NCBI GenBank assembly: GCA_028282585.1
Contig: JANQHR010000046.1
Coordinates: 82,924 to 114,923 of the forward strand
From: Bacteroidales bacterium
GTDB taxonomy: Bacteria > Bacteroidota > Bacteroidia > Bacteroidales > UBA12077
Direction of reading: 5' to 3'
DNA length: 32,000 nt
Shown here piece by piece: positions 12,301-32,000 of the stretch. A program made the translations under genes and the position numbers. Under the pieces are notes generated by a model. That model saw nothing but the letters and a program-made list of their open reading frames with translations, ran no database searches and was not told the DNA's origin. Positions within the stretch are counted from its first letter, which is position 1. Each line of letters begins with the position of its first letter.

Positions 12301-12392
12301 TTTAATTTGATTAAAACTTCGACGAAATCTAAGAGTTACTTTGTTTATAGACGTTGATTAATATTCAGATATTTTCTTAACTGTTAAGTGTG

Positions 12393-19700: not shown

Positions 19701-22700
19701 CATGCATCCCAATTAATACTTATATACTTTGTATTTTGAGTATTTTTGTAATATGCAAAAGCATCTAAAAAAGCATTTGCTGCAGTATAATCAATTGTTC
19801 CTACATTTGGGTAAATTGCATTTAATGAAGAAAACAGTAAAACAAAATCTAAATCTAATTTAAGTTCTTCAATTATTCTATTTATTACTAAAGTTCCATA
19901 CAGTTTTGTGGTAAAGACTTCTTCAACTTTTTGTGTTGTTTTAAGTTGAATTAATCCTCCTCCGGGTAAGCCAGCACAATGTATTATTCCATCAATTCTA
20001 CCAAACTTTTTGATTCCATTTCTCACAATATTATTAACACTATTATAATTAGAAATATCTGAATTACATATTATAGTGTCATGCCCAAAGGACTTTATAA
20101 ATTTCAGCTTGTTAATTTTCTCAACTATTTGATCGGAGTTTGGTTTATTTAACAATTTATCCCATTCACTTTCATCAGGAAACTTTGATCTGCTCACTAA
20201 TATTAAATTCGCACTAACATTTTTTGCCAAATATTCAGCAATTTCTAATCCCAATCCACCTAATGCACCTGTAATTAAGTAAGCACCATTCTTTTTCAAG
20301 TATAACTCTTTATCTTTACCTGTATTAATATTTACGCGTTCATAATTTAAAGCAAAACGATGGTTATTTTGATAACTTATAATACGATCCTTAGTGTTAA
20401 TTAAAATCTCATCTAAAATACTATTAATGAGTTGTAACTCTTCTTTTTCTCCTTCAATGTTTTGAGCAATATCAACACTTTTACATCTAAAGTTAGATAA
20501 TTCTAACGGTATTGTTCTAATTGCACCAAGTAATGTTGCCTTTTCCGGATATTGAATCTGGCTACCTGAAATACTTTGCATTTGATCAGTTACAACACAG
20601 AGCTCAACTTTATTAGTTATCGAGTTATTTGCATAAGCTTTAGCAAGAAATAATAAACTATAAAATCCTAGATTTTGAGATCTTTTAACCTTTTCTATTT
20701 CTTTTAAATTGTGTTTTTCATTGGATAAGTTCCATAAATGAACAACCATTTCAGGAATAGTATTCTTATTTTTTAGATATTCAATTAATTTATTTAAATC
20801 CTTTTCGTTTCCAGGTCGAATCTCAGCCTCATTATTTTTGTTTATATTAAACTTATTACCCTCTTTAACAATTATTGTTGACTCATATATCTTATTAAAT
20901 CTATCAATAAGTCTTGAGCAAATTTTTTCATTGTTAGCAAATACTAAACAAACCTTATCTGAATTAACTTCTCCACTATCTGTGTAATTAAGAATTGTGG
21001 GTTTCCATATGGGAAAGTATGTCCAGTTATCAATACCAAGTCTTTCTTTAATATTATCGTTCACTTGCACAAGTTCGGATATATCTCTCTTTTGTAATAT
21101 ATTTTCCGCAAGAGATTCATTTATTTCAAACTTCTTTTTTGAAAATGAATATCCAGGTAATGAAATTCTTCTTCTTTCTTCACCGTGATAATACTTTTGC
21201 CAATTAATCTTTATCCCATTTAACCATAGGTATCCAATACGCGAAACGAGATAAAATACATCGGAATATTCTTGATTTTCCAGTCTAATAGTATTGAATA
21301 TTTTCTTATTTGGCACATTCTTAATAAATTGGTAGGTAATAGTACTTAATGAATTTCCTGGTCCGATTTCACAAAAAACAGGATCCTCTAATTTAGACAA
21401 CTCTTCTAATCCCTTACTAAACTGAACAGTTTTTCTTAACTGCATTACCCAATAATCAACCGAACCGGCATCCTCTATAGTAATCCATTCGCCAGTTACA
21501 TTTGATATATAAGGTATTTGGGGTGTACTTAGAACTTTAGTTTGTAGCTTTTGTTTATATTCGTTCATTATCATTTCCATATCACGAGAATGACCTGCTA
21601 CATTTATCTTAAGTCTTTGACAAATTATTCGATTTTCTTTAAGTAATTTTTCAACAAAAGAAATACTATCCACCGAACCTGAAATAATACAAGATTCTCC
21701 ATGATCAGCCGCTAAAGAAATCTGATCATTTAAATATTCTGAAAGCTTTGAACTTTCTAAAGGAATATTTAACATAACACCTTCAGGAAGTTTAGTCATT
21801 AGGTAACCTCTATAGCTTACTAAATCAAGTGCATCTTCCAGGGTTAAAACACCAGATAAACAGGCAGCTGTGTACTCACCAATACTATGGCCAATCAGAG
21901 CAGAAGGTTTTATATCCCAATCCATTAATAACTTTGCTAACGAATATTCAATTACAAAAGTAATAACCGGTGAAACATCAATATTATCAATAACAGTTTC
22001 ATTCAAAAATTCTTCTGTTGATGGATAAATAATTTCTTTATAATTATAATCAGAAATGGTACTTAGTATCTTGAAACAGTTATCCATTACATTTCTAAAT
22101 TCAGGTTCTGTTTTATAAAGCCCCAGCCCCATATTAATATATTGAGAACCCTGGCCTGAAAACATAAAGACAATAGGAGAATTACTGTTTTGACATATTT
22201 TCTTTATAAATCCCTTTTCCTCTACTTTATTTAATTTGCCCAATGCATCGTCAATATCAGAACAAATAAGGTATGCTCTATGATCAAATTCTTTTCTTCC
22301 AACACTTAAAGTATATGAAATATCTGATAAATTAATGTCACAATTATTTTGTAGAAATTCCGTTAATTTTTTGATATTTTCTTTTAAAGATTCTTCGTTA
22401 TTAGCCGAAACCAGTAATAACTTATACTCCTTTTCTTGTTTGCTATATTTTAATTCAGGCGCTTCCTCTATAATTACATGGGCGTTTGTACCTCCTATTC
22501 CAAATGAGCTAACTCCTGCGCGTAAAGGATATTCATTATTAGTCCATTCCTTCAAATTTCGATTTATATAAAATGGAGAATCCTCTATACCTAAACTGGG
22601 ATTAGGTTCTTCGAAGTTTATACTTGGCGGTATCATTCTATGTTTTAACGAAAGAATTCCTTTAATAAAACTTCCTACTCCCGATGCGGTGCCCATATGG

Positions 22701-23767
22701 CCTACATTTGCTTTTAGCGACCCTATTCCGCAAAAGGACTTCTTTGAGCTATTAAACGCTTTTTTTAAAGCTTCAATCTCAACGGGATCTCCCAACTTAG
22801 TTCCTGTTCCATGAGCTTCAATATATCCAACACTTTCAGAAGGAACTTCTGCCATCTTTAATGCAGCTTCAATTACAGATTTCTGCCCCTTAACACTTGG
22901 AGCTGTATATCCAACCTTTTGATTTCCATCATTATTAACCGAGGAACCTTTAATAATAGCATAGATATTATCACGATCTTTTATTGCATGATTTAATTTC
23001 TTTAATACAACCAAACCTACACCCTCGCCTACTGCAATACCACTTGCATTTTTATCAAAAGCTCTACAATGTCCATCCTTAGATAACACCATTCCCTCTT
23101 TATAGACATAGCCCTTTGATTCTAAAATATTTAAATTAACACCACCAGCAACAGCCATATCACATTCTCCGGTCAACAAAGCCCTGCATGCCAAATGTAT
23201 TGCTACAAGTGAAGTAGAACATGTTGACTGTACTAAAACACTTGGTCCTTTTAAGTTTAAATTATATGAAACTCTTGTTGTTAAATAGTCCCTCTCGTTA
23301 AATAAAGAAGCAAAAAATGTATCTAAACCCAGTTCTCTTTCATTTAACATGGATATTACTTTCCATTCAAAGTCTGAGGAAGATCCGGCATATAATCCAA
23401 TAGAACCTTTATAATCCTCCGGATTATATCCTGCATCCTCTAATGCATGCCATGTAGATTCATGTAAAATCCTAGATTGAGGATTTAATGCTTGTGCCTC
23501 GTTTGGGGCGTATCCGAAAAAATCAGGATCAAAAAGATCCTTACCATCCATTATTCCTCCCTTACAATTTACATATTGACTGTCGTTTTTTACTTTTGGA
23601 TCAATATCTAGATTTTCAACCTCTCCTTTGGTTAAAAAAGTTATTGATTCAACTCCATTCTTTAAATTTTCCCAGAATTCAATCGTATTAACAGCTCCTG
23701 GAAATCTTGCTGAAATTCCGATAACAGCTATTTCAAGACCATTATATTTAGAGTTTTGTTTAGTCAT
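13721..23767 (-). CDS. Hybrid type I PKS-NRPS: KS-AT-KR-DH-CP-C-A(Gly)-T-C
   Basis: 3348-aa ORF with ATG at 23765-23767 (verified) and TAG at 13721-13723. Domain motifs are listed under the individual domain features. Confidence 0.93.
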   Translation of the reverse strand: MTKQNSKYNGLEIAVIGISARFPGAVNTIEFWENLKNGVESITFLTKGEVENLDIDPKVKNDSQYVNCKGGIMDGKDLFDPDFFGYAPNEAQALNPQSRILHESTWHALEDAGYNPEDYKGSIGLYAGSSSDFEWKVISMLNERELGLDTFFASLFNERDYLTTRVSYNLNLKGPSVLVQSTCSTSLVAIHLACRALLTGECDMAVAGGVNLNILESKGYVYKEGMVLSKDGHCRAFDKNASGIAVGEGVGLVVLKKLNHAIKDRDNIYAIIKGSSVNNDGNQKVGYTAPSVKGQKSVIEAALKMAEVPSESVGYIEAHGTGTKLGDPVEIEALKKAFNSSKKSFCGIGSLKANVGHMGTASGVGSFIKGILSLKHRMIPPSINFEEPNPSLGIEDSPFYINRNLKEWTNNEYPLRAGVSSFGIGGTNAHVIIEEAPELKYSKQEKEYKLLLVSANNEESLKENIKKLTEFLQNNCDINLSDISYTLSVGRKEFDHRAYLICSDIDDALGKLNKVEEKGFIKKICQNSNSPIVFMFSGQGSQYINMGLGLYKTEPEFRNVMDNCFKILSTISDYNYKEIIYPSTEEFLNETVIDNIDVSPVITFVIEYSLAKLLMDWDIKPSALIGHSIGEYTAACLSGVLTLEDALDLVSYRGYLMTKLPEGVMLNIPLESSKLSEYLNDQISLAADHGESCIISGSVDSISFVEKLLKENRIICQRLKINVAGHSRDMEMIMNEYKQKLQTKVLSTPQIPYISNVTGEWITIEDAGSVDYWVMQLRKTVQFSKGLEELSKLEDPVFCEIGPGNSLSTITYQFIKNVPNKKIFNTIRLENQEYSDVFYLVSRIGYLWLNGIKINWQKYYHGEERRRISLPGYSFSKKKFEINESLAENILQKRDISELVQVNDNIKERLGIDNWTYFPIWKPTILNYTDSGEVNSDKVCLVFANNEKICSRLIDRFNKIYESTIIVKEGNKFNINKNNEAEIRPGNEKDLNKLIEYLKNKNTIPEMVVHLWNLSNEKHNLKEIEKVKRSQNLGFYSLLFLAKAYANNSITNKVELCVVTDQMQSISGSQIQYPEKATLLGAIRTIPLELSNFRCKSVDIAQNIEGEKEELQLINSILDEILINTKDRIISYQNNHRFALNYERVNINTGKDKELYLKKNGAYLITGALGGLGLEIAEYLAKNVSANLILVSRSKFPDESEWDKLLNKPNSDQIVEKINKLKFIKSFGHDTIICNSDISNYNSVNNIVRNGIKKFGRIDGIIHCAGLPGGGLIQLKTTQKVEEVFTTKLYGTLVINRIIEELKLDLDFVLLFSSLNAIYPNVGTIDYTAANAFLDAFAYYKNTQNTKYISINWDAWQEVGGAVKTLKQLSNPFNENSFIKRKIDHFLFRKYISNENESILISYIHSENDWIVNEHRILDKATMPGTGYLQMLYAAVQFLYPKNDSVEIRALHILRAMVFEKDENKEIHTIITQKGDLLDFKILSYYEDEDSWIEHCKGQVSILEAKLNIQENIDYFKNQELKPTKALENNLHENEYLRFGKRWRNNNVKIKVGENIGLSDIIIGEESLEDLKEYSLHPGLVDVALSPILSKGAFLPAYYHKITIIKPLTKNFCSLVRLNKSENEDFINYDFVLSDDSGTILKVEGYNLLDISNSEIKSTDSGELSNYTSSDFINYVSPEKIIKEESEKVNYYLKDAIKPSEGKIIFSRALACNLNQIIVSTIDLEQRKIDDNKELESKLINSSSSVKNLNLRTRPELSTNYVAPNNDIEEQLVKIWEDHLTFEGIGVFDDFFELGGNSVKAILIINSIREKLNFNIKIADFFKNKNVKKLTDYLNRSSIADSTNSINILPSEKKEYYTISSAQKRLFILDSLTNRTISFNLPHCYRIKGEFYTERLQCSIELLIKRYESLRTSFKIIKGDAVQIVHDPEEILFDKLNVTKIDNNELEDIFENSILPFDLSKAPLFRIKVFKISDDDHLLFIDIHHIIADAYSCRLFINQLFDTYQSNSTSFKPINIQYKEFGIWQENRNKLEEFESQKKYWLNLLNGNLPILNLPVDFSRPVLQSTNSDLIVVELDSVLTTKIKEFCTNIGVTSYVYFLSVYYILLYKYTNQKDIIIGSTIFGRSSKDFEELIGIFINILPIRIQIDIKQTLLDFFNLIKDKTIEAMSNQDYQFDDLVNDLKIERDTSHNPVFEAGFSYLGFDESSELKNLSDNLDIKPVKIFNKEAAKNDITIYCNESDTIEISVEYCSDIFRKDFINQFTNHFRNLLITLIDNSSVRLYDIECNLPDEKSKLIERFNETTYEYPQTRSIHELFEDRSDDTPDHVAISYGKSLLTYKELSIRSNQMANYLRDQGVLPGQTIGLLSGRSLELIIGIFGILKSGCSYLPLDPSYPELRIKNIIESSGIDYLLSDNSLNKVLTDNLTVLDINYPLIHTYPGLLSFPDTTTPTDLAYIIYTTGSTGTPKGVMIEHKSLVNFVYGINKEIPFSTTDCLFSLTTISFDIFGLELFVPLLRGSRLVLGNEQEQLDGDLILRRLEEFGVTILQLTPSRLQLLLGSDRVGRSLRNLKSLLLGGEELSLQLLENVRQLTNAEIFNMYGPTETTIWSSIKNVTREKEISIGKPIVNTQLYVLDESNGLVPQGCIGELCIGGDGLARGYFQDEALSSEKFIEHPFESTGKLYKTGDLARWLPDGNLMFLGRTDYQVKIRGFRIELREIERVILGHENISECVVLCREEEGDKYLCAYYVPGSKIDQSELRNYLGGILPDYMVPGYFEELTSLPLTSNGKIDRKSLPKPEIRSGKDYVAPRSTTELQLVKIWSEILQIEEKEISINDSFFDLGGHSLKATILISRIFEEFNVKLTLSDVFINQDISKLSAVVNSSKKLEYETIKSSEKKDYYELSAAQRRLFLLYQLNKNSTSYNLPGIYSFEDELDKDLIKDIFLKLINRHESLRTSFSYYNDKLIQKITDDVNFDIEYIDLRNLNNQDFKKSSNLNQVIKNFIQPFDLNDPPLLRACIAQTESKSYLLFDLHHIISDAISNDILIEDFLSLYNKKELFPLKLQYKDYAEWANSQHNLNLDKQLNYWLNKFKDPFEILKLPVNRIKLEEPESENYLFSIDKNLHKKIREYTKGNNTTLYAFLLSVYNILLFKYTNQENFFIGTPVAGRIDNNLNNIVGFFINMLPVKSYIDTDLEYETYLNKIKNETIVDFENQDLPYDELIFHLRKSGKLSEFDLINTVFTMQYIDEGTNQINNTINAQREKNLHNKNLKYLLTLDAFGSSSRTNMLFRYASDSFNQDFISQMADHFQRIIELVINNNSIILSQINLTNNYILANSELIENHEEEFNF
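13763..15085 (-). other. C-terminal condensation (C) domain
   Basis: aa ~2895-3335. YYELSAAQRRLFLLYQL, NRHESLRTSF, HHIISDA, NYWLNKFKDP, FFIGTPVAGR, FFINMLPVK, NQDLPYDELI. The protein ends at ...ELIENHEEEFNF, the position of the C-A linker FNxT motif seen in the other modules. Confidence 0.88.
15128..15355 (-). other. Peptidyl carrier (T) domain
   Basis: aa ~2805-2880. TELQLVKIWSEILQ...FFDLGGHSLKATILI, with Ser2844. Confidence 0.9.
15383..16870 (-). other. Adenylation domain; hand-extracted code DILQLGMIWK (Gly)
   Basis: aa ~2300-2795. LTYKEL, LKSGCSYLPLD, YTTGSTGTPKG, SFDIFGLE, ILQLTPSRL, LLLGGEEL, NMYGPTETTIW, YKTGD, GRTDYQVKIRGFRIELREIE, LPDYMVP, NGKIDR. The code differs at one position from the recalled Gly code DILQLGLIWK. 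Confidence 0.85.
16913..18220 (-). other. Condensation (C) domain
   Basis: aa ~1850-2285. YYTISSAQKRLFILD, KRYESLRTSF, HHIIADA (nt 17798-17818, verified; Ala replaces the usual Gly), YWLNLLNGNLP, IIIGSTIFGRS, IFINILPIR, NQDYQFDDLV. Confidence 0.88.
18263..18505 (-). other. Carrier protein domain (PCP-like sequence, in the ACP position)
   Basis: aa ~1755-1835. IEEQLVKIWEDHL...FFELGGNSVKAILI, with Ser1798. Confidence 0.85.
18818..19615 (-). other. PKS-type dehydratase (DH) domain, located after the KR
   Basis: aa ~1385-1650. NEHRILDKATMPGTGYL is the HxxxGxxxxP motif with Asp in place of Gly (His1415). YSLHPGLVDVALS is an HPALLD-type motif (Asp1582). Confidence 0.75.
19718..21025 (-). other. 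Ketoreductase (KR) domain (structural + catalytic subdomains)
   Basis: aa ~915-1350. Rossmann motif GAYLITGALGGLGLEIAEYL and catalytic-Tyr motif IDYTAANAFLDAFA. HCAGLPGGG sits at the position of the LDD stereo-motif, so LDD is absent. Confidence 0.85.
21263..22180 (-). other. Acyltransferase (AT) domain with VAGH specificity motif
   Basis: aa ~530-835. FMFSGQGSQY, GHSIGEYTAAC (Ser628), and INVAGHSRDM at the HAFH/YASH position (V723-H726, nt 21590-21601, verified on DNA). Confidence 0.88.
22460..23746 (-). other. Ketosynthase (KS) domain
   Basis: aa ~8-436. IAVIGISARFPGA, QSTCSTSLVAIHLA (active Cys183 at nt 23219-23221, verified), EAHGTGTKLGDPVE (His319), KANVGHMGTASG (His357), SSFGIGGTNAHVIIEE. 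The Cys-His-His triad is intact. Confidence 0.93.
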
Positions 23768-23888: not shown

Positions 23889-25034
23889 TTATTTAGTATT
23901 GTAATAATACTTTCTGAGTGCGTAACTGGATATTATGTTTTTTTGTATTTGTGATGTTCCTTCAATTATCTCCAATACCTTAGCTTCTCTAAATAACCTT
24001 TCAACAGGGTATTCTGAATAACATCCATTTCCTCCATGAACTTGTACAGCATCAATAGCAACATTCATTGCAATTTTTGAGGAAAAATATTTTGCAATTG
24101 TAGTTTTTATTACAGCTTCATGACCTTTATTCATTCTATTATTTGCAGCTTCAATACATAAGGCTCTTGCTGCATGGATATTTGTAGTAGCATCAGCAAT
24201 CATTCCCTGAATATGTTGAAAGGTATGTATACCTTTCCCAAATTGATTTCTATTTCTTGAATATTTCACCATTGCATCTAACGCTTCCTGTGCAATAGCA
24301 ACACCCGCCCAAGCAATACTATATCTTCCATTATCAAGCGCAGTATTAACAACAAATGAAAAGCCGCATCCTTCTTTGCTTAACAAATTCTCACGAGGTA
24401 TTTCTACATTTTTAAATTCAATTTCTGATATATGTGAAGCTTTATTAGCTAATAAACCTTTTATTGGCTTAACTTCTATCCCCTCATAATTGCGTTCAAC
24501 AATAAAAGTAGATATTCCTTTTTCTCCTCTTGCTACAACTATGAAGAAATCAGCAATTTCAGCAAAACTTATCCATTTTTTCTTTCCATTTAGAATATAT
24601 CCGGAATTAGAATCTGAATATGAACACTGAATATTTTTTGCATCCGTACCTACATTTGGTTCAGTTAAAGCAAAAGCCCCAATCTTCTCTCCTGTTGACA
24701 TCATTGGTAACCATCTCATCTTTTGTTCAATACTCCCCCATTTTAGCAAAGTTTCAGCAACTAAAGAGGTATTAACAGTTATTAATCCACGCGTATTACA
24801 ACATGCTTTACCAATTTCTTCCGTAAACAATCCATAATGAAGTGAATCTAGCTCAAGGCCACCAAAATCTCTTGGTATACTTGCAGTTAAGTATCCATTT
24901 TTAGCTAAATTAGTAATTAAATCATTTGGCAGTTTTTCCTCGTTTTCAAAAATAGTAGCAAAAGGCCTTATCTTTTTTTGAGCAAATTCTTTTACTTCTT
25001 CAATAACAGTATTTTGATCTATCAAATTATTCAT
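23889..25034 (-). CDS. Acyl-CoA/acyl-ACP dehydrogenase family flavoprotein (FkbI-like)
   Basis: The ORF track gives 389 aa from a TTG at 25056-25058. I prefer the ATG at 25032-25034 (MNNLIDQ...), preceded by AAAGAGG. ACAD-like motifs: GAFALTEPNVGTDA, WISFA, VQVHGGNGC, EAKVLEIIEGTSQIQKNII. Confidence 0.85.
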   Translation of the reverse strand: MNNLIDQNTVIEEVKEFAQKKIRPFATIFENEEKLPNDLITNLAKNGYLTASIPRDFGGLELDSLHYGLFTEEIGKACCNTRGLITVNTSLVAETLLKWGSIEQKMRWLPMMSTGEKIGAFALTEPNVGTDAKNIQCSYSDSNSGYILNGKKKWISFAEIADFFIVVARGEKGISTFIVERNYEGIEVKPIKGLLANKASHISEIEFKNVEIPRENLLSKEGCGFSFVVNTALDNGRYSIAWAGVAIAQEALDAMVKYSRNRNQFGKGIHTFQHIQGMIADATTNIHAARALCIEAANNRMNKGHEAVIKTTIAKYFSSKIAMNVAIDAVQVHGGNGCYSEYPVERLFREAKVLEIIEGTSQIQKNIISSYALRKYYYNTK

Positions 25035-25045
25035 TGCCTCTTTAG

Positions 25046-25747
25046 TTATAAACTGCAAATGGCAACGGTAAAATCGTAGACATACCCATTACTACTCAAG
25101 CTCTGCCTCACTTTTAAACCTCCATTCTCCAGTATATTAATCAGTTCCGACTCTTTCAATAGTTCTCTGTATCCTAAATTGAGTTCTGGATGCATTTCCA
25201 TAAAAACTCGTGTTAGAACAGTATCTGTAGGTACTGAGATAATTATAACACCATCTTCGGCTACATATTTTTTATGTTGCTCAATGATTGATGTTTTATC
25301 CATAAAGTGTTCAATAAGCCCAAAACTCCCTACAATATCATACTTTTGATCCAGTGATAAGTCAAAAATATCTTCACGTAAGTAAGATATATTTTTAACA
25401 ACAGTATCCTTTATCAGTGAAAAAGAATTAAACGCTTCTTCTGATTTGTCAACAAGCGTGGCCCTTCCTCCATACTGATTTAAAAGCCATCGGCTTAAAA
25501 ATCCAGTTGCGGCTCCTAACTCAAGTATTTTAGGATTTGATTTTATTTTTTCTGTTGATAAAAGTTCAAGCATTAGTCTAGTAAAAGAAAACGATAATCT
25601 GAATTTGTCTTCTTTTAATAATTCTCGTATTTGAAAAAATAGCTTTTCTTTATCACAACTATTGATTAGTTCCTTATTTCTATCCTTTGAAAAAAACATG
25701 TCCCATTCGAAACCTTCTTTTGATAAATAATCTGTTGTTATATACAT
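25046..25747 (-). CDS. Class I SAM-dependent methyltransferase (in the position of FkbG)
   Basis: 233 aa with ATG at 25745-25747 (verified). Motif I ILELGAATGFLSRWL, acidic post-I LVDKSE, YDIVGSFGLIEHF, DGVIIISVP. Confidence 0.8.
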   Translation of the reverse strand: MYITTDYLSKEGFEWDMFFSKDRNKELINSCDKEKLFFQIRELLKEDKFRLSFSFTRLMLELLSTEKIKSNPKILELGAATGFLSRWLLNQYGGRATLVDKSEEAFNSFSLIKDTVVKNISYLREDIFDLSLDQKYDIVGSFGLIEHFMDKTSIIEQHKKYVAEDGVIIISVPTDTVLTRVFMEMHPELNLGYRELLKESELINILENGGLKVRQSLSSNGYVYDFTVAICSL

Positions 25748-25788
25748 TTTAAAAACGATATTATTTAATCCGATAAAAGCAATTATGT

Positions 25789-26034
25789 TCAGTTCCTATT
25801 TTTATTGATAAGATTAATGATATTATCAATAGAACTAAAATTTGAGATATCAATATCTTCATTATTTACAGAAATACTAAACTCACTCTCCACATAACTA
25901 AGCAGTTTCATTGCAAAAAGAGAATTAACAAATCCTTTTTCAAAAATGTTATCACTATCAGAAAAAATGACTTCATCATTAAAAACTATTAAATTGCTTT
26001 CGATGAATTTTCTAATCTTATCTTTAGTTTCCAT
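25789..26034 (-). CDS. Stand-alone acyl carrier protein (FkbJ-like)
   Basis: 81 aa with ATG at 26032-26034. Carrier motif FEKGFVNSLFAMKLLSYVE (Ser within VNSL at the DSL position). It lies between the FkbH-like and methyltransferase genes. Confidence 0.75.
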   Translation of the reverse strand: METKDKIRKFIESNLIVFNDEVIFSDSDNIFEKGFVNSLFAMKLLSYVESEFSISVNNEDIDISNFSSIDNIINLINKNRN

Positions 26035-26046
26035 AATTTTAAAAAT

Positions 26047-27081
26047 TTAGTTTATTGATAATTTAATATATGGTGGAAATTCTTGAATTTTTTCAAGAGT
26101 ATTTTCGAATTTTATGTAGCCGTTATCTAAAACTAATACTTCCTTAAAATTGGAAAATTTATATGTTACGTACATCATTTTATTACGATCCGTCTTGATA
26201 AAATCTGCAGTTACCTTTTTATTTTCTGTTTTTGCTTGTTTCATAATATAAGAAAGTAGTACTGATCCTACACCACGTGATATAACTCGACAAGACATTA
26301 ATAATAGTTTTACTTCCCATGTAATTTCGGTAATATGTATTAAACCCAAACCTATTTTTCCATATGATCCATACTTGTCTTTTAATTCACAAACCAATAA
26401 TTTATGATTAGGAGATGATCTAAAATAGTTAAGTTCCTTATAACTATATGTTTTCCCTGTTGCATTTAATTGATTAGTACGCACAGTCAACTCCTCGGCT
26501 CGTTGAAGATCTTCTTCAGCTGCTTCTGAAATAATAAATTCCATATTTAATGAGGCTAAAAACTCATCTTTGGGTCCTTCATACTCTTCTTCAAGTCTTG
26601 TTCTTTTAATATTCTCAAGATACATTAATCTTCTTCGTTGAGAATCTTTTGTTATAAATTTCGGATTAAATCGTGATCTAGATAATAATTCTTTATAATC
26701 TACTGAATCAATACATTCAACTTGAGGACACTGGGATTTAACCTCCTCTCTTTCATATGGTTGATCATCAATAAAAACAATTGTATCAATTCCAATATTT
26801 AAATCTTTTTGTATTTGAGCGACCGATGCTGACTTAGCATTCCAATTAATTTGAGGATATAAAAAATAATGATCTATGCTGAATTCTTTCAATTTTCTCA
26901 TAGCATCATCATAGTTATTCTTACTTGATATTGAGTTTAAAATCCCTCTAGAATCTAATGTATTTAATATATCCTCTATACCGGTTTTTAATTTTATGGT
27001 TTTAGACTCAGTTAAAACATTATCCCAAATTGTGTTATCTAAATCCCAAATAACACATTTAACCTCTTTCTTATATTCCAC
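26047..27081 (-). CDS. FkbH-like protein (HAD-IIIC phosphatase + acyltransferase, glyceryl-ACP forming)
   Basis: 344 aa with an apparent GTG start at 27079-27081. HAD motif I VIWDLDNTIWD, SISSKN (motif II-like), IVFIDDQPYERE. The C-terminal half carries LLLMSCRVISRGVG, matching the FkbH-family SCRVxxRG Cys motif as I recall it. Confidence 0.8.
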   Translation of the reverse strand: MEYKKEVKCVIWDLDNTIWDNVLTESKTIKLKTGIEDILNTLDSRGILNSISSKNNYDDAMRKLKEFSIDHYFLYPQINWNAKSASVAQIQKDLNIGIDTIVFIDDQPYEREEVKSQCPQVECIDSVDYKELLSRSRFNPKFITKDSQRRRLMYLENIKRTRLEEEYEGPKDEFLASLNMEFIISEAAEEDLQRAEELTVRTNQLNATGKTYSYKELNYFRSSPNHKLLVCELKDKYGSYGKIGLGLIHITEITWEVKLLLMSCRVISRGVGSVLLSYIMKQAKTENKKVTADFIKTDRNKMMYVTYKFSNFKEVLVLDNGYIKFENTLEKIQEFPPYIKLSIN

Positions 27082-27099
27082 CTTATTAATAGATAAACA

Positions 27100-27954
27100 T
27101 TAGTATTTATAAAATCCTTTGCCCGTTTTTTTACCATAATCTCCAGCATGTACCATTTTTTTCAACAAAGGACAACATCTAAATTTAGGATCCTGATATT
27201 CCTCATAAAGAACATCTAACGAATTAACAACCGTATCTAAACCTATTAAGTCAGCTGTTTCTAACGGGCCCATTTTATGGCCATAACCACGCTTAAATAT
27301 TTCATCAATTTTATCAGGGCTAGCAACTTGGTCTTGAACCAAAAATGCAGCTTCATTCATAAATAAATGTGACAGTCGATTTGCAACAAAACCTGGAAAG
27401 TCTTCTACAACTATTGCCTTTTTATTTAATAGTTTAAGTATTTTCTCTGCTTTATCAATTGTGTCTTTACTAGTATGATATCCTTTAACAACTTCCACTA
27501 TATTTTTAAGTGGAACGGGATTCATAAAATGTAATCCAATCACGTTTTCGGATTTTTCAAATTCGCCTGCAATTTTAGTTATTGAAATACAACTAGTATT
27601 TACAGCAAAAATTTCCCATTCAATTTTTTCGTTTTTTAACTCTGTGTATAAACTCTTTTTAGTATTCCAATTTTCGGTTATATTTTCAACAATAATATCA
27701 AGTTCTTTAAAATCCTCCCATTCTTTTGTAAAAGTAATCTTAGCCAAAACGTGCTCTGTACTTACATGAGCAAATTCCTGTTTTATCATTTTCACTAACC
27801 TTAATTCACTACCTAGCTTTTGTTTGGCATTAAGTAGTGCATTTTCTGAAATATCCTTCAATATTACATTACAATTGTTCAGTGCAAAATCAAGAGCAAC
27901 GCCTACTCCCATAACCCCTGCTCCGATTACACCAACACTTATTTCTTTATTCAT
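27100..27954 (-). CDS. 3-hydroxyacyl-CoA/ACP dehydrogenase (FkbK-like)
   Basis: The ORF is open to 28014, but the ATG at 27952-27954 (MNKEISVGVIGAGVMGVGVA) places the Rossmann GxGxxG at the normal N-terminal position. Other motifs: HFMNPVP, GFVANRL, MGPLETADLIGLD. Confidence 0.85.
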   Translation of the reverse strand: MNKEISVGVIGAGVMGVGVALDFALNNCNVILKDISENALLNAKQKLGSELRLVKMIKQEFAHVSTEHVLAKITFTKEWEDFKELDIIVENITENWNTKKSLYTELKNEKIEWEIFAVNTSCISITKIAGEFEKSENVIGLHFMNPVPLKNIVEVVKGYHTSKDTIDKAEKILKLLNKKAIVVEDFPGFVANRLSHLFMNEAAFLVQDQVASPDKIDEIFKRGYGHKMGPLETADLIGLDTVVNSLDVLYEEYQDPKFRCCPLLKKMVHAGDYGKKTGKGFYKY

Positions 27955-28030
27955 TTTTCTATTTTTAATAAACAATCTATATATGTTAGAATGGATGTAT
28001 CCAGTATGTTGCAACTATAGTTGACTGAAT

Positions 28031-31000
28031 TTAATTATTCAAAAAGCTATTTTTCATAAAATCTTTTCCTTCTTCTAAAGTTTCGAAATTATTCACAGTA
28101 GTATTTTCTTCACTCTGTTCAGATTCCAAATGATCTGTTAATCCTTTTATAGTGGTATACGTAAATAAGGTTGTAATAGGAATTTCTTTGTCGAGTAACT
28201 CGTTTAGTTTAGTATTCACTAAAATTAAACTTAAAGAGCTTCCTCCGAGATCAAAGAAATTATCATTTACACCTATTCTATTTAGTTTTAAAACTTCTTT
28301 CCAAATTGCTTCAACCGACTTCTCCATTTTGCTTTCAGGTGCAACATATGTTGTCCCTGTCATGGCCCTATCTTTTTGCGGTGCAGGAAGTGATTTAAAG
28401 TCAATTTTACCACTAATTGTCAACGGAATAGAAGGAATCTCTGTGAAATATGAAGGTACCATATATTCAGGTAATGATTCTAATAGAAATTCTCTTAAGG
28501 TATTTGAATTAACATTTTCTGAAAAACCATTCACCGGAATGAAATAAGCTGCAATATATTTCTCATCATCTCTAATATTTACTTTTTCGCTCACCCCCAG
28601 CCTTCTTAAAAAGTTACCATATGCCTTTTCGGAGACCTTACAATTTAAATCTTCTTCAACGTTCTCAAGGGATAAGTGATCTAGTCTTTTTTCCCAACTT
28701 GTTGCTGAACCATAATAATGAAATCCATGATCTTTCATAAAACCATAATCTCCAATTTCTTTTATAGCACAGTTTGTTGAATAAACTGCAAAGTCTTTTT
28801 TCTTTTTCCAGTATGAGTCTTGTTTATTTAAATAGGTTATTAAATCCTCATTTTTAATATCACAAAACCTATAAAAATCCAGAAACCTCACTTTATCATG
28901 TATTCTACCGTCCGTTACTACATCTATATCAACTAAGTCAAATATTTTACTATCAATCTTTGGAGTATTCTTTTGCATATTTAATATTTCCTTTTCAATT
29001 AACTGATTATCCATATTTTCAGATTTCATGAAAATATTAAGTTTGTTTTCAATTATTTGACCCCTTGAAAGTGTAGCTCCAATAACAACTTTAATATCGT
29101 GTTTGTAAGCATACTCAGCAGCAAGCGAACTTGATACATGAAAACATCCCCTACATACAGTCGAAAAGGATTTCATACTTTCTTTAAGTATAATATCAGA
29201 TATATCGTGCTTTAAAATGATATTTTCAACACCCAACGATGATGTTACATATTTTATATTCTTAATATCTGATTTAGAAAAGTAACCATTGTCATATGTT
29301 AAAGTTAATACCTTCAAACCCATTTTAACCAGTTGATATAAAGCATAACCTGCTCCCCGTCCTCCTGCATAAAGTAAAATACAATCATATTTACTTTCTT
29401 TATCTTTATTTTGCTCTTTTACAAAAGTTTGAAGATCATCTAAAGATTTAAAATATTCATTAATGACTTTACTATTTTTTTCCAAGGAATTACACTGGTT
29501 ACAGATATTACTGTCATCTATCTTAATCTCTGGATAAGTAGAATTAATTCCGCATTTTTTACAATATTTTAATTCCGGTTTATCATCCTTTGGCGACCTA
29601 ACCATTAAAACACAGTCCTTAATATTCTGATGTTTTTGTAAAGCATTCTTTATTTCTCCAAGTTCAATTCTATATCCTCTAACCTTAACCTGTTCGTCTT
29701 TTCTTCCTTTAATTTCAATATTCCCATCTATTAACCTTCTACCAATATCTCCGGTTTTATAAAGTTTCCCTTCTCCAAATGGATTATCAATAAATACTTC
29801 ATTTGTTTTTTTCCAATTATTAATATATCCTCTTGCAATACTATCTCCTGCTATACAAATCTCACCATAATAACCAAGTGGTTTTTGTTGTAAATCGTCC
29901 GAAAGAATATATACTTGATTATTTGCAACATTATTGCCAATAGGAATTATTTCTCGAGTATCATCTTTCTTTAAAGGATAAAATGTATTATTAATAGTAC
30001 CTTCTGTTGGACCATAAGTATTAACAACCCTACCTTCCAAATAATTATGGAAATTTCTAACAACATTGGCAGCAACAGGTTCAGCTCCTATAAACAGGAG
30101 TGGTATTTTAATTTTAATATCATTTTCATAGGAATCTAAAATATGGGTAATAGCAGTAAACATAGATGCTGTGCAGTACATCTTTGTAATTTCAGTAGCT
30201 TTTGACAGAAGTTTTATTAAATGGTTAGCATCTTTACTTATTATGTCATTAATGACTTTTACTTTAGCACCTTTGTACAATGGCCAAAATACTTCGAAAA
30301 CTGACGGATCGAATGTAAGATTTGTACGTTGTGCCATTACATCAGTTTCTAACATCCCAAATTCCTTATCCATCCAGAATACACAATTATTTACTTGTTT
30401 GTGTTCCACCATTACACCTTTTGGCACTCCTGTTGATCCTGATGTGTACATAACAAAAGCCAAATCACTACCATTGGTGGGTATATCCAAATTCGAAGAT
30501 GGTTTATCTTTTAATTGATCAACCATTTGATCAATAATTATAATATTCCTGGTATCCAGCACATTTTTTTGTAATATTTTTTTATATACAATTCCATTTA
30601 TAGACTCTAGTTGCCTAGTATCAGGAATATTAAAGTCATTCTTAAAAAATTCCTTAAGTAATTCTTCAAAAGTATATTCTCCTTCACCAAGTACAGCTAA
30701 ATCAACATTTTCATCTTTTAGAATAGTATCGTAATCACTTGATGCATACGGCCCACCTACAATTAATGGAACCTTTATTCCCCAATTTCTAATAATAGAA
30801 ACTGTTTGGTGAAAAAAGTCTCTGTAAAAAGTCAAAGTTCTTATTCCAATTAGATCTGGATTAAACTCTTTTACCAAGGTTTGCAACTCCTGGTAATTAT
30901 CAAAATCAACACCTGCCTTATATATAAGCCCATCGATCTTATCCTTGAATTTCTTTTTAAGATATGTCAATAAGTATACTAAACCAATAGGTTGTTCAAC

Positions 31001-32000
31001 AACCTTATATAGCATACTGTGACTACTGAAGTGCTGAGATAAATCTAATAGCAGTATTCTTTTTTGATTTTGTTTTTTTTCGCTTGCTGTATTACCTGAA
31101 CTGTTAAAAACTATTGGCGCATCAATTTTTATTTTTTGATCGAATTTTAGCTGTGTATTATTTAATCCGGCAAGCTCCATAATATCTTCAACATTATTAA
31201 TTTCAACAGGCAAATAAGCATTATATTTTTGTATAAGGGCCGTTTCATTTAAGACCTTCATCTGTGCCGGAAGTACCTGTTTAAGCCGATCTTTATTAAG
31301 AAAATACTCATTCATAAAATCAGCCTGATACTTTCTTGTAAAAGATTTCGGAAATGGTAAAGTTTCCGGTAGTTCATGAAATGCCCTATCTTTTGAATTC
31401 ATTATATCACTTTTTCGCACTCCATTTTTCAAAGCAAATTCTTCCATTTCTGTATTTGGAAAGATTTTTAGAATATGTATATATGGAAAATGTAACCATT
31501 TAATATCCTTTATAAATTTTAGGGTCATCATAGCTTCCTCTTCTGTTTCGGTTGGGAATCCATGCATGGTTGCCATTTCCAGTATTACATGTGGATGAGT
31601 ATTTGCTATATAGTTTACAACATCACGAAATTTATCAAGGTTTAGGTTCTTTTTTAGTAATTTTTGTAACCTTGGGGAGGCTGTTTCCAATGATAAATTA
31701 ATTCCTCTGGTACCTGCTTCTACCATCAAATCAATATAATCCGGAGTCATGATATCTCCTCTTAAACCATTTGGAAAGAATAACTGAATATCAAGCTTAT
31801 TTTTTACAATATTTTGAAGAAGCGCGCCACTTTCTCGTAAATTCAAATTAAAACAATCATCAATAACAGCAAAGTTCCGAACACCTTTTTTATAAAAAGA
31901 TTTTATTTCCTCGAAAATATTATCACCACTTCTATGGACATGGTGTTTAGACCAAATTTTATGACAATAAAGACATTTATACGGGCACCCCCGTGTTGTT
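28031..32000 (-). CDS. NRPS, 5'-truncated by the window edge: ...A(A1-A2 outside window) - radical SAM - B12-binding-like - A(A3-A8) - Zn-ribbon/PP-loop-like domain - A(A9-A10) - T
   Basis: The ORF track starts at a TTG (31846), but the frame stays open to nt 32000. My hand translation of 31847-31999 gives TTRGCPYKCLYCHKIWSKHHVHRSGDNIFEEIKSFYKKGVRNFAVIDDCFN, colinear with aa 683-733 of the 1-4947 protein. The stop is at 28031-28033. Confidence 0.9.
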   Translation of the reverse strand, partial: TTRGCPYKCLYCHKIWSKHHVHRSGDNIFEEIKSFYKKGVRNFAVIDDCFNLNLRESGALLQNIVKNKLDIQLFFPNGLRGDIMTPDYIDLMVEAGTRGINLSLETASPRLQKLLKKNLNLDKFRDVVNYIANTHPHVILEMATMHGFPTETEEEAMMTLKFIKDIKWLHFPYIHILKIFPNTEMEEFALKNGVRKSDIMNSKDRAFHELPETLPFPKSFTRKYQADFMNEYFLNKDRLKQVLPAQMKVLNETALIQKYNAYLPVEINNVEDIMELAGLNNTQLKFDQKIKIDAPIVFNSSGNTASEKKQNQKRILLLDLSQHFSSHSMLYKVVEQPIGLVYLLTYLKKKFKDKIDGLIYKAGVDFDNYQELQTLVKEFNPDLIGIRTLTFYRDFFHQTVSIIRNWGIKVPLIVGGPYASSDYDTILKDENVDLAVLGEGEYTFEELLKEFFKNDFNIPDTRQLESINGIVYKKILQKNVLDTRNIIIIDQMVDQLKDKPSSNLDIPTNGSDLAFVMYTSGSTGVPKGVMVEHKQVNNCVFWMDKEFGMLETDVMAQRTNLTFDPSVFEVFWPLYKGAKVKVINDIISKDANHLIKLLSKATEITKMYCTASMFTAITHILDSYENDIKIKIPLLFIGAEPVAANVVRNFHNYLEGRVVNTYGPTEGTINNTFYPLKKDDTREIIPIGNNVANNQVYILSDDLQQKPLGYYGEICIAGDSIARGYINNWKKTNEVFIDNPFGEGKLYKTGDIGRRLIDGNIEIKGRKDEQVKVRGYRIELGEIKNALQKHQNIKDCVLMVRSPKDDKPELKYCKKCGINSTYPEIKIDDSNICNQCNSLEKNSKVINEYFKSLDDLQTFVKEQNKDKESKYDCILLYAGGRGAGYALYQLVKMGLKVLTLTYDNGYFSKSDIKNIKYVTSSLGVENIILKHDISDIILKESMKSFSTVCRGCFHVSSSLAAEYAYKHDIKVVIGATLSRGQIIENKLNIFMKSENMDNQLIEKEILNMQKNTPKIDSKIFDLVDIDVVTDGRIHDKVRFLDFYRFCDIKNEDLITYLNKQDSYWKKKKDFAVYSTNCAIKEIGDYGFMKDHGFHYYGSATSWEKRLDHLSLENVEEDLNCKVSEKAYGNFLRRLGVSEKVNIRDDEKYIAAYFIPVNGFSENVNSNTLREFLLESLPEYMVPSYFTEIPSIPLTISGKIDFKSLPAPQKDRAMTGTTYVAPESKMEKSVEAIWKEVLKLNRIGVNDNFFDLGGSSLSLILVNTKLNELLDKEIPITTLFTYTTIKGLTDHLESEQSEENTTVNNFETLEEGKDFMKNSFLNN
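28127..28354 (-). other. Peptidyl carrier (T) domain
   Basis: Track aa ~1165-1240. MEKSVEAIWKEVLK...FFDLGGSSLSLILV, with Ser at aa 1204. Confidence 0.88.
28367..28570 (-). other. Adenylation domain segment A9-A10
   Basis: Track aa ~1093-1160. EKYIAAYFIP, LPEYMVP (A9), PLTISGKIDFKSLP (A10, Lys517 equivalent present). Confidence 0.85.
28571..29584 (-). other. Zinc-ribbon + PP-loop-like adenine-nucleotide-alpha-hydrolase-type domain (WbpG/N-acetyl-sugar-amidotransferase-like) inserted between A8 and A9
   Basis: Track aa ~755-1092. YCKKC...(16 aa)...ICNQC (nt 29492-29563), then KYDCILLYAGGRGAGYALYQLVKMGLKVLTLTYDNGYFS. AGGRGAG (nt 29348-29368, verified) occupies the SGGxDS PP-loop position. Further downstream are STVCRGCFHV and LGVENII. 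The layout matches the CxxC..CxxC + YDCI-x-x-SGGKDS + 'vDnGw' pattern I recall for this family. Confidence 0.55.
29603..30484 (-). other. Adenylation domain segment A3-A8; hand-extracted code DPFYFGTINK (no match to any code I can recall)
   Basis: Track aa ~455-748. YTSGSTGVPKG (A3), TFDPSVFE (A4), NTYGPTEGTIN (A5), GEICIAGDSIARGY (A6), YKTGD (A7), GRKDEQVKVRGYRIELGEIK (A8). Confidence 0.85.
30647..31063 (-). other. B12-binding-like domain (paralogue of 1528-1962)
   Basis: Track aa ~262-400. KRILLLDLS...EQPIGLVYLLTYLKK...ELQTLVKEFNPDLIGIRT...VPLIVGGPYASSDYDTIL...VDLAVLGEGEYTFEELL...INGIVYKK. Confidence 0.7.
31172..32000 (-). other. Radical SAM core domain (paralogue of 2068-3015), partial at the window edge
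   Basis: CPYKCLYC, with Cys codons at 31985-31987, 31973-31975 and 31964-31966 (verified). AVIDDCFNL, LETASPRLQKLLKKNL, MHGFPTETEEEA. By eye, roughly 60% identical to the other copy across the aligned block I compared. Confidence 0.85.
31532..31567. repeat. 36-nt dispersed repeat, copy B (35/36 identical to 2437-2472)
   Basis: See copy A. The coordinates were counted directly on the sequence lines. Confidence 0.9.

Follow-up and report, generated by a model that had tools for sequence, protein, structure and literature searches.

Can a single adenylation (A) domain of a nonribosomal peptide synthetase (NRPS) house two further enzymes, and what would these do to the residue that it loads? The question is raised by a gene at the right edge of a 32,000-nucleotide (nt) stretch of DNA from a Bacteroidales bacterium (GenBank assembly GCA_028282585.1, contig JANQHR010000046.1, positions 82,924 to 114,923), which is referred to here as the window. 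Translation showed that this gene, the target gene, is a single open frame of 1,322 codons on the minus strand, which runs from 31999, where it exits the right edge of the window, to a stop codon at 28031-28033. It encodes an NRPS module made of the C-terminal half of a condensation (C) domain, an A domain and a thiolation (T) domain, and the A domain houses two complete extra enzymes: a radical S-adenosylmethionine (SAM) enzyme with a cobalamin (B12) domain (rSAM-B12) between the core motifs A2 and A3 (site a2-a3), and a homolog of the aminomutase/amide dehydratase (AMDH) domain of CysH between A8 and A9 (site a8-a9). For domains nested within other domains of an NRPS, interrupted A domains are the standard textbook example, with class-I methyltransferases and KR, Ox and AMDH domains as the known inserts.

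Two inserts nested in one adenylation domain

The first residues of the target fragment already lie within the radical SAM domain (TTRGCPYKCLYC), with CPYKCLYC at amino acids (aa) 5-12. Pfam searches placed Radical_SAM (PF04055) at aa 1-163 (E 4e-18, 66.5 bits against a cutoff of 29.5), B12-binding (PF02310) at aa 335-448 (E 2e-12, 47.6 bits against a cutoff of 32.1) and AMP-binding at aa 487-725, the last with a match that begins only at profile position 126. The A-domain core also matched TIGR01733 at positions 81-408. Further downstream, TIGR03573 (WbuX/NASAT) matched aa 811-1119 (E 2.7e-26, 92.8 bits, under the curated cutoff of 203.2), followed by AMP-binding_C at aa 1145-1198 and PP-binding at aa 1229-1291 (E 2e-13). 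The A3 motif (LAFVMYTSGSTGVPKG) was found at aa 513-528, the A8 motif (GRKDEQVKVRGYRIELGEIK) at aa 765-784 and the two strands of the A8-A9 hairpin, VLMVRSPKDD and EKYIAAYF, at aa 797-806 and 1146-1153, and A9 (LPEYMVP), A10 (SGKID) and the T motif (FFDLGGSSL) were all present. A3-A10 and the serine motif of the T domain are canonical. Every motif string cited in a preliminary description of the window was recovered in this translation; its left boundary of the feature, 28367, fell short, since the gene ends ~340 nt further on, at 28031, and the T domain occupies 28127-28315.

A protein search identified an ortholog, P0001, which is 98% identical to the target and 1,766 aa in full length, on a contig of a Bacteroidales metagenome-assembled genome (MAG) with a gene order that matches that of the window. 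In P0001, A1 (LTYTDLNIRANKLA) and A2 (LKTGAAYLPID) precede the rSAM domain, and the Pfam AMP-binding match is broken into two stretches that flank Radical_SAM and B12-binding. Because A1 and A2 lie upstream, the rSAM-B12 unit is nested between A2 and A3 and is not an N-terminal fusion. With A1 and A2 taken from this ortholog, the core motifs A1-A10 are intact, including D235 and K517. The second insert was delimited by alignment to the uninterrupted C-terminal subdomain (A_sub) of a paralogous module in the window, which showed that 336 aa are inserted exactly at the hairpin turn between VLMVRSPKDD and EKYIAAYF. The double interruption proposed in the preliminary description, with an insert of about 340 aa splitting the A_sub hairpin and canonical core motifs, is thus borne out by the layout of hidden Markov model (HMM) matches, the paralog alignment and P0001.

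P0001 begins with a partial C domain, its C-terminal half (Pfam positions 188-451), which lacks HHxxxDG, and the gene upstream of P0001 ends in a complete C domain (locus L001, 2-3568 and 3653-8953). A split of the same kind, with a C domain at the end of one protein and an A domain at the start of the next, was also found between the window genes 13721-23767 and 5104-12300.

Beyond P0001, the protein search returned >100 homolog clusters that contain both inserts, with 47-67% identity and 96-100% query coverage, and >100 full-length homologs likewise nest rSAM-B12 after A1-A2. The doubly interrupted layout was found in the isolate genomes of Ruminiclostridium cellulolyticum, Acetivibrio cellulolyticus, Clostridium botulinum and Pseudobacteroides cellulosolvens ATCC 35603 and in MAGs of Halanaerobiales, Aminicenantes, Acidobacteriota, Omnitrophota, Spirochaetia and Deltaproteobacteria; the family overall also includes Bacillota and Bacteroidales. 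Comparison of the window with the 98%-identical ortholog gave ratios of nonsynonymous to synonymous changes (pN/pS) of 0.06 for the rSAM domain, 0.12 for the B12 domain, 0.10 for the AMDH-like domain and 0.03 for A_sub plus the T domain, all from small counts, and synonymous changes dominated in every part of the gene. Purifying selection and deep conservation suggest that both inserts are functional. The earlier expectation of a functional rather than a decayed enzyme therefore agrees with the pN/pS of 0.06-0.12 in the inserts and with the >100 clusters at ~100% query coverage.

These results refute an artefact, that is, a metagenome misassembly, a pseudogene or an N-terminal fusion of the rSAM enzyme to a truncated A domain. 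Such an explanation could appeal to the fact that the window itself holds A3-A10 only and that the nearest relative is a MAG contig, but A1 and A2 lie upstream in the ortholog, the frame is open over 1,322 codons and under purifying selection, and the architecture recurs in >100 clusters. The same architecture is present in the four isolates, and the layout is not an assembly artefact.

One Halanaerobiales MAG carries five copies of the doubly interrupted module (L005, L007, L009, L012 and L017), and two such modules lie 15 kb apart on one contig (L013 and L021). With up to five copies per genome, the modified residue is probably used repeatedly in one product.

The a2-a3 insert belongs to the class-B radical SAM enzymes

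By sequence and fold, the a2-a3 insert belongs to the class-B radical SAM enzymes, which depend on cobalamin. Its domain order is rare, with the rSAM domain ahead of the B12 domain. All three cysteines of CxxxCxxC were invariant in 105 of 105 homologs, and the B12 domain was highly conserved in the family. In HMM comparisons, the rSAM part matched class-B profile positions ~235-480 and the domain that follows matched positions ~10-170, indicating that the order is swapped; the usual class-B order, with B12 N-terminal to rSAM, was not found in the target insert. An AlphaFold2 (AF2) model of the insert, made with 51 sequences, reached a pLDDT of 86.6 and a pTM of 0.83. The nearest folds returned by Foldseek were the class-B enzymes AprD4, MgmA (the MCR glutamine C-methylase), TsrM, CysS, TokK and OxsB, which aligned over ~300 columns only, and Mmp10, which aligned over the full length (513 columns). 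Mmp10 has been described as unique among known B12-rSAM enzymes for its C-terminal B12 domain (PMC8828468).

The best HMM matches of the insert were the P- and C-methyltransferases Sden_1168 and PhpK, and BchE, HpnJ and BzaD, which are not methylases, matched with similar scores. None of the scores came near the cutoff of its family, and the insert can therefore not be tied to any particular reaction. Class-B enzymes are mostly methyltransferases, and their fold differs from that of class-I methyltransferase (M) domains. For this reason the label of a non-methyltransferase fold, which the preliminary description had attached to the insert, is doubtful. It is unlikely, though worth serious consideration, that the insert catalyzes a dehydration, rearrangement, epimerisation or C-C cyclisation of the tethered residue. 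Such a reaction would fit with the diol dehydratase AprD4 as the best structural match, with the similar HMM scores of methylases and non-methylases and with the failure to reach any family-specific cutoff. However, most characterized class-B enzymes are methylases, as are the top HMM matches; the closest folds include the methylases of peptide or carrier-bound substrates MgmA, Mmp10, CysS and TokK; and the B12 domain is highly conserved.

Proteins with the same rSAM-then-B12 order also exist in free-standing form. They are 540-600 aa long, 50-57% identical to the insert and encoded inside NRPS and polyketide synthase (PKS) clusters of anaerobes, so that the a2-a3 insert has the appearance of a tailoring enzyme that acted in trans before it was captured. 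One NRPS cluster, L028, contains three such proteins (10001-11740, 11801-13495 and 19898-21703). The C-terminal ends of these proteins (…QFNDDLENE) are similar to those of NRPS subunits encoded next to them, a similarity suggesting that they dock onto the assembly line. The possibility that these genes lie between the halves of a split A domain was rejected, because the downstream NRPS opens with a complete A domain.

The a8-a9 insert is a homolog of the CysH and AlbIV AMDH domain

An AF2 model of the a8-a9 insert, made with 36 diverse family members, reached a pLDDT of 91.7 and a pTM of 0.90. The best Foldseek match was the Legionella NASAT 8WEX (TM 0.61/0.55), followed by the [4Fe-4S] tRNA thiolases NcsA and TtuA, YcfA, [4Fe-4S]-LarE, QueC and NAD synthetase, all of the PP-loop ATP-pyrophosphatase superfamily. 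The HMM match, the model and the Foldseek results agree that the insert folds as a domain. As to the earlier wording of a PP-loop-like domain, the fold was correctly recognized and the PP-loop motif itself is lost, since AGGRGA stands in place of SGGKDS.

The insert had also been called unrelated, as if it were of an unknown fold. A BLASTP comparison with the AMDH domain of CysH, with the CysH sequence taken from the source data of the paper, gave 34% identity over 316 aa (E 5e-68), and the insertion point, the hairpin turn, is identical to that in canonical members such as P0139. These results show that the a8-a9 insert is a homolog of the CysH/AlbIV AMDH at the same insertion point, belonging to a subfamily without the SGGKD ATP motif. 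The AMDH domain was described in CysH of the cystobactamid pathway, with a homolog in AlbIV of the albicidin pathway (Gross et al. 2021, PMC7966384). After loading, it turns T-bound Asn into beta-cyano-alanine by dehydration or into isoasparagine by isomerisation; the CysH protein is dark brown, suggesting a metal; all AMDH homologs found by BLAST were in Asn-specific A domains, and the mechanism was left unknown (PMC7966384). In an exhaustive search, the target insert matched 476 clusters (50% identity level) at E <= 1e-30. Ranked below the proteins that contain rSAM, a second tier of matches, at 30-38% identity, consisted of ~1,400-aa C-A(insert)-T modules that lack rSAM/B12 and have the canonical SGGKDS. 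In Clostridium botulinum, a 347-aa protein annotated as hypothetical (P0184) is AMDH-like, stands on its own and likewise has the canonical SGGKDS.

Each cysteine of the Zn-ribbon tetracysteine CKKC...NICNQC was present in 105-106 of 106 aligned sequences, and C949-x-G-C952 and C1077, which fall where the CxxC of [4Fe-4S]-LarE (mmLarE) aligns, are invariant in the family. In contrast, the PP-loop SGGxDS is AGGRGA in the target and [A/S]GGRG[A/S] in the family consensus, with variants [ASNG]GGRG[AS]. The Asp and both Ser are replaced in every subfamily member, and 17 of 105 members have ACERVA. In these 17, K1080 is replaced by Cys (STDCxIC, in the columns at 28760-28780 of the window), which adds cysteines in the loop and beside the invariant C1077; because they form one clade, this covariation may be inherited rather than structural. 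The mean column identity of the insert was 61% among sequences 42-62% identical to the target, and the 28 invariant columns include polar residues in LSRGQ, YSTNC, W..R and CxGC. A thioamide-forming role like that of the [4Fe-4S] thiolases was considered and not adopted: the PP-loop that adenylation would require is missing, no sulfur-carrier genes lie nearby and the homology to AMDH is far stronger.

Two insert subfamilies with different host specificity codes

Inserts were compared in a 272-sequence alignment, and specificity codes were taken from 252 host A domains. Canonical SGGKDS inserts (~140 of 272) reside in A domains with the Asn code DLTK[IV]GEVG in most cases, the Gln code DAQD[IL]G[IV]VD in ~20 and DPRH or DARH in a few. 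Degenerate-loop inserts (~132 of 272) reside in A domains with the code DPWY[ILVF]GTIN, which reads DPFYFGTINK in the target. Both subfamilies share the Zn ribbon, YDC, DNG, CxGC, LS(R/K)GQ, DFYRY, STNC and W..R; they differ at the PP-loop and in several subfamily-specific motifs, and the degenerate group has conserved motifs that are absent from canonical AMDH.

The code of the target (family code DPWY[ILVF]GTINK) shows that the host A domain is not Asn- or Gln-specific: it shares only D235 and G301 with the Asn (DLTKxGEVGK) and Gln (DAQDxGxVDK) codes. To our knowledge, DPWY[ILVF]GTINK matches no known specificity code; DPYHGGTLCK, the dihydroxyphenylglycine code, resembles it loosely and was not used. 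The A-domain core of the target is 31-39% identical to Asn-specific, Gln-specific and other A domains alike, and relatedness therefore gives no hint of the substrate.

These comparisons bear on two alternative views of the a8-a9 insert. The domain might still be canonical, performing an ATP-dependent conversion of a carboxamide to a nitrile, or of Asn to isoAsn, via an altered phosphate loop. Its 34% identity to the CysH AMDH, the shared insertion point, the Gly-Gly and basic residue (K to R) kept in the loop of most members and the co-occurrence of rSAM-B12 with a canonical AMDH in the Gln-code proteins P0181 and P0182 are in line with this. We nevertheless regard it as very unlikely, given that no member retains the Asp or either Ser of SGGxDS, that the ACERVA subclade has no glycine-rich loop and that D235 and G301 are all that the code shares with the Asn and Gln codes.

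Alternatively, the insert could be a catalytically dead relic that forms a structural part of A_sub or a docking surface for partner enzymes, leaving rSAM/B12 as the sole extra chemistry. Strong conservation of the insert (61% mean column identity and 28 invariant columns, polar residues among them), its pN/pS of 0.10, the subfamily-specific motifs not found in canonical AMDH and the ability of the paralogous A domain to fold without such an insert make this unlikely. The relic view nonetheless accounts for the loss of SGGKD in all ~132 subfamily members, the ACERVA loop of one subclade and a host A domain without an Asn or Gln code, and it has a precedent in CysH, where deletion of AMDH also abolished O-methylation by CysQ, an effect that the authors ascribe to a protein-protein interaction (PMC7966384).

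Co-occurrence of the two inserts

Among the degenerate-loop inserts, 117 had an upstream rSAM motif, and the other 15 were N-terminally truncated fragments; hence all of the inserts on proteins long enough to show rSAM-B12 have it (117/117). Among the canonical SGGKDS inserts, 130 lacked rSAM and two had it. The two, P0181 and P0182, are metagenomic and have Gln-code (DAQDIG[VI]VD) A domains with both rSAM-B12 and a canonical SGGKDS AMDH, and they are possible intermediates between the insert subfamilies.

The paralogous module in the window has an Asn code (DLTKVGEVGK) and carries between its own A2 and A3 an rSAM-B12 insert that is 51% identical to that of the target over 479 aa. A further natural di-interrupted A domain, in the metagenomic relative L028 (3191-10000), combines rSAM-B12 at a2-a3 with a PRMT-like class-I methyltransferase at a8-a9, located after the A8-A9 hairpin. 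Since the paralog, P0181/P0182, L028 and the target differ at a8-a9, rSAM-B12 at a2-a3 combines with several a8-a9 states, and the combination in the target is the largest of those encountered in this analysis. Between hosts, the rSAM-B12 cassette is 51-56% identical, compared with 31-39% for the host A cores. A role for the AMDH-like domain as an electron relay for the rSAM enzyme was also considered and is weakened by the paralog, which has rSAM-B12 alone.

A proposed route from loading to modification

The best explanation of these data, to which we assign a probability of roughly 0.55, is that the module performs an rSAM/B12 C-methylation in cis and an ATP-independent AMDH-type step on the T-bound residue. 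The A domain would adenylate one dedicated alpha-amino acid other than Asn or Gln and load it onto the T domain; an alpha-amino acid is suggested by the retention of D235 and K517. The phosphopantetheine arm would then present the thioester to the rSAM/B12 site, which most likely methylates an unactivated sp3 carbon, with one SAM giving rise to the 5'-deoxyadenosyl radical and methylcobalamin supplying the methyl group. This role is proposed by analogy with most class-B enzymes, including those that methylate peptide or carrier-bound substrates (MgmA, Mmp10, CysS and TokK). The arm would present the thioester to the AMDH-like domain as well. There, the step is most likely ATP-independent and metal-dependent, for example an isomerisation, which AMDH also performs, or binding of the side chain. 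With the Asp and Ser of the PP-loop lost, the domain probably no longer carries out an ATP-driven dehydration of an amide to a nitrile.

Several observations weigh against this proposal. The class-B HMM scores are far under the curated cutoff of every family, the top structural match is AprD4 and class-B enzymes also catalyze reactions other than methylation. Without the Asp and Ser of the PP-loop, the AMDH-like domain could be purely structural, and its putative metal site at CxGC...C, for Fe-S or Zn, is proposed from invariance, the LarE alignment and the brown color of CysH. The paralog has no a8-a9 insert, and since it works without one the two inserts need not cooperate. Finally, position 278 of the target code reads Y or M depending on the alignment.

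In a broader interpretation, which we offer tentatively and at less than even odds, the target would represent the first rSAM/cobalamin enzyme in an A domain, performing in-cis radical C-H functionalisation of a carrier-bound amino acid. Its partner, an AMDH-derived domain in which a metal (Fe-S) site has replaced the ATP site, would perform a new ATP-independent step. The two would yield a dedicated non-proteinogenic residue that recurs across a widespread family of cryptic peptide-polyketides of anaerobes.

Features of the target gene and neighbouring genes

The features of the target gene, which were located by the methods given for each, and the paralogous module are listed in Table 1.

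Table 1. Coordinates in the window of the target gene's domains and motifs and of the paralogous module
Feature	Position	Strand	Basis or remark
Radical SAM core in the a2-a3 insert, truncated at the window edge	31511-31999	-	PF04055; upstream part from P0001
CPYKCLYC (CxxxCxxC)	31964-31987	-	Within the radical SAM core
C-terminal helical extension of the rSAM enzyme and linker to the B12 domain	30998-31510	-	Class-B rSAM profile match; highly conserved
Cobalamin (B12)-binding Rossmann domain, C-terminal to rSAM	30656-30997	-	PF02310, class-B profiles, Foldseek against Mmp10
A-domain core A3-A8	29585-30475	-	Pfam AMP-binding, TIGR01733, motif positions
A3	30416-30463	-	Motif search of the translation
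A4	30299-30313	-	Motif search of the translation
A5	30002-30022	-	Motif search of the translation
A6	29825-29866	-	Motif search of the translation
A7	29747-29761	-	Motif search of the translation
A8	29648-29707	-	Motif search of the translation
AMDH-like (NASAT-fold) domain in the A8-A9 hairpin	28577-29584	-	TIGR03573, AF2, Foldseek, identity to CysH AMDH
Zn ribbon, CKKC	29552-29563	-	Within the AMDH-like domain
Zn ribbon, CNQC	29492-29503	-	Within the AMDH-like domain
Degenerate PP-loop, AGGRGA	29351-29368	-	Within the AMDH-like domain
CRGC	29144-29155	-	Within the AMDH-like domain
STNC	28769-28780	-	Within the AMDH-like domain
Remaining A_sub, with EKYIAAYF	28370-28576	-	AMP-binding_C; alignment to the uninterrupted paralog
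A9	28454-28474	-	Within the remaining A_sub
A10	28400-28414	-	Within the remaining A_sub
Thiolation (carrier) domain	28127-28315	-	Pfam PP-binding
FFDLGGSSL	28232-28258	-	Within the thiolation domain
C-terminal tail and stop codon	28031-28126	-	Translation
Paralogous module TubC_N-C-A(rSAM-B12)-T, complete	1-4947	-	Pfam; a2-a3 insert, no a8-a9 insert

Immediately downstream of the target gene, a cassette of five genes typical of methoxymalonyl-acyl carrier protein (ACP) supply occupies 23889-28014 on the minus strand, encoding a 3-hydroxyacyl-CoA dehydrogenase, an FkbH-like HAD protein, an ACP, an O-methyltransferase and an acyl-CoA dehydrogenase. A MiaB/RimO-like radical SAM protein (UPF0004 plus Radical_SAM) is encoded at 12393-13721 (minus strand) and separates the PKS-NRPS gene from the NRPS gene that follows. 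The latter, at 5104-12300 (minus strand), encodes an A-T-GT-C-A-T protein with a GT4-type glycosyltransferase (GT) domain (aa 887-1198) between T and C.

Novelty and significance

Literature searches turned up no description of an A domain with an embedded radical SAM or B12 domain, no report of a natural a2-a3 plus a8-a9 di-interruption and no account of what the clusters of R. cellulolyticum, A. cellulolyticus and P. cellulosolvens produce; coverage of the literature was incomplete, and absence from it is no proof. A 2024 review lists only M, Ox and KR inserts. Natural di-interrupted A domains have been described only with methyltransferases at a2-a3 and a6-a7 (family 7), and the same work states that a natural a2-a3 plus a8-a9 di-interruption had not been found and made an engineered one (Lundy et al. 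2020, PMC8341866). The preliminary description overlooked these natural di-interrupted domains, and its view of a2-a3 and a8-a9 as the two known sites has to be widened to include a6-a7 (PMC8341866). The embedded radical SAM/B12 enzyme and the natural a2-a3 plus a8-a9 double interruption thus appear to be new. The AMDH half is an already known interruption, of which the non-Asn subfamily without the ATP motif appears new to the literature searched.

An embedded rSAM/B12 metalloenzyme would bring oxygen-sensitive radical chemistry to A-domain inserts, and the target would show that natural A domains can host inserts at both a2-a3 and a8-a9, a pairing that the field had reached only by engineering. 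The degenerate subfamily is a natural experiment on the mechanism of AMDH: the ATP motif is gone and the cysteine triad and most motifs are retained, which separates the ATP-dependent function from the role of the conserved, putative metal site. With its many members, some of them in cellulolytic clostridia that can be cultivated, the family is accessible to experiment, and its fixed specificity code is a genome-mining handle for a dedicated building block.

Comparison with known systems

The rSAM/B12 insert shares CxxxCxxC, a GFPxET-type rSAM core, a Rossmann B12 domain and matching folds with the class-B enzymes Mmp10, MgmA, CysS, TokK, TsrM and AprD4. These enzymes are free-standing, whereas the rSAM/B12 enzyme of the target is embedded in a domain of another enzyme and scores below curated cutoffs. 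Mmp10 has the same rSAM-then-B12 order, but the iron-loop cysteines of Mmp10 are absent from the target insert. The substrate of CysS is pantetheine-linked and comes from an NRPS pathway, and structures of CysS with pantetheinylated substrates exist, which indicates that class-B enzymes can act on carrier-type substrates.

Like the AMDH of CysH and AlbIV, the a8-a9 insert is a domain of ~335 aa in the A8-A9 hairpin with shared motifs, and the AMDH of CysH acts on a T-bound residue. The target variant differs in lacking SGGKD, in a host that is not Asn-specific, in the constant presence of rSAM-B12 and in its occurrence in anaerobes; any dehydratase or aminomutase activity of the target variant would be unlikely to be driven by ATP.

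NASATs are defined by a Zn-binding tetracysteine CxxCxn[GN]xCxxC and the PP-loop SGGxDS (PMC10607449). NASAT (WbuX/WbpG/LpNASAT, 8WEX) is the best structural match and the best named-family HMM match of the insert, and the tetracysteine CxxC...[GN]xCxxC is common to both. However, the insert falls under the TIGR03573 cutoff (92.8 against 203 bits) and has lost the PP-loop, and NASAT is a free enzyme of O-antigen synthesis, whereas the insert is a domain within an NRPS. The [4Fe-4S] PP-loop enzymes TtuA, NcsA and archaeal LarE, together with YcfA, provide the next-best structures and the pattern of a CxxC plus a distant Cys, but the insert has no PP-loop and its gene cluster gives no evidence of a sulfur donor.

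A parallel in architecture is offered by the M-interrupted A domains, which include the natural di-interrupted family 7 and engineered a2-a3 plus a8-a9 constructs, and in which foreign catalytic domains likewise occupy a2-a3 and a8-a9 with all A motifs kept (PMC8341866). The expected logic is also alike, namely in-cis modification of the T-bound aminoacyl thioester. Those domains, however, carry class-I SAM methyltransferases, whereas the target carries a two-domain rSAM/B12 metalloenzyme of ~550 aa together with an AMDH-like domain.

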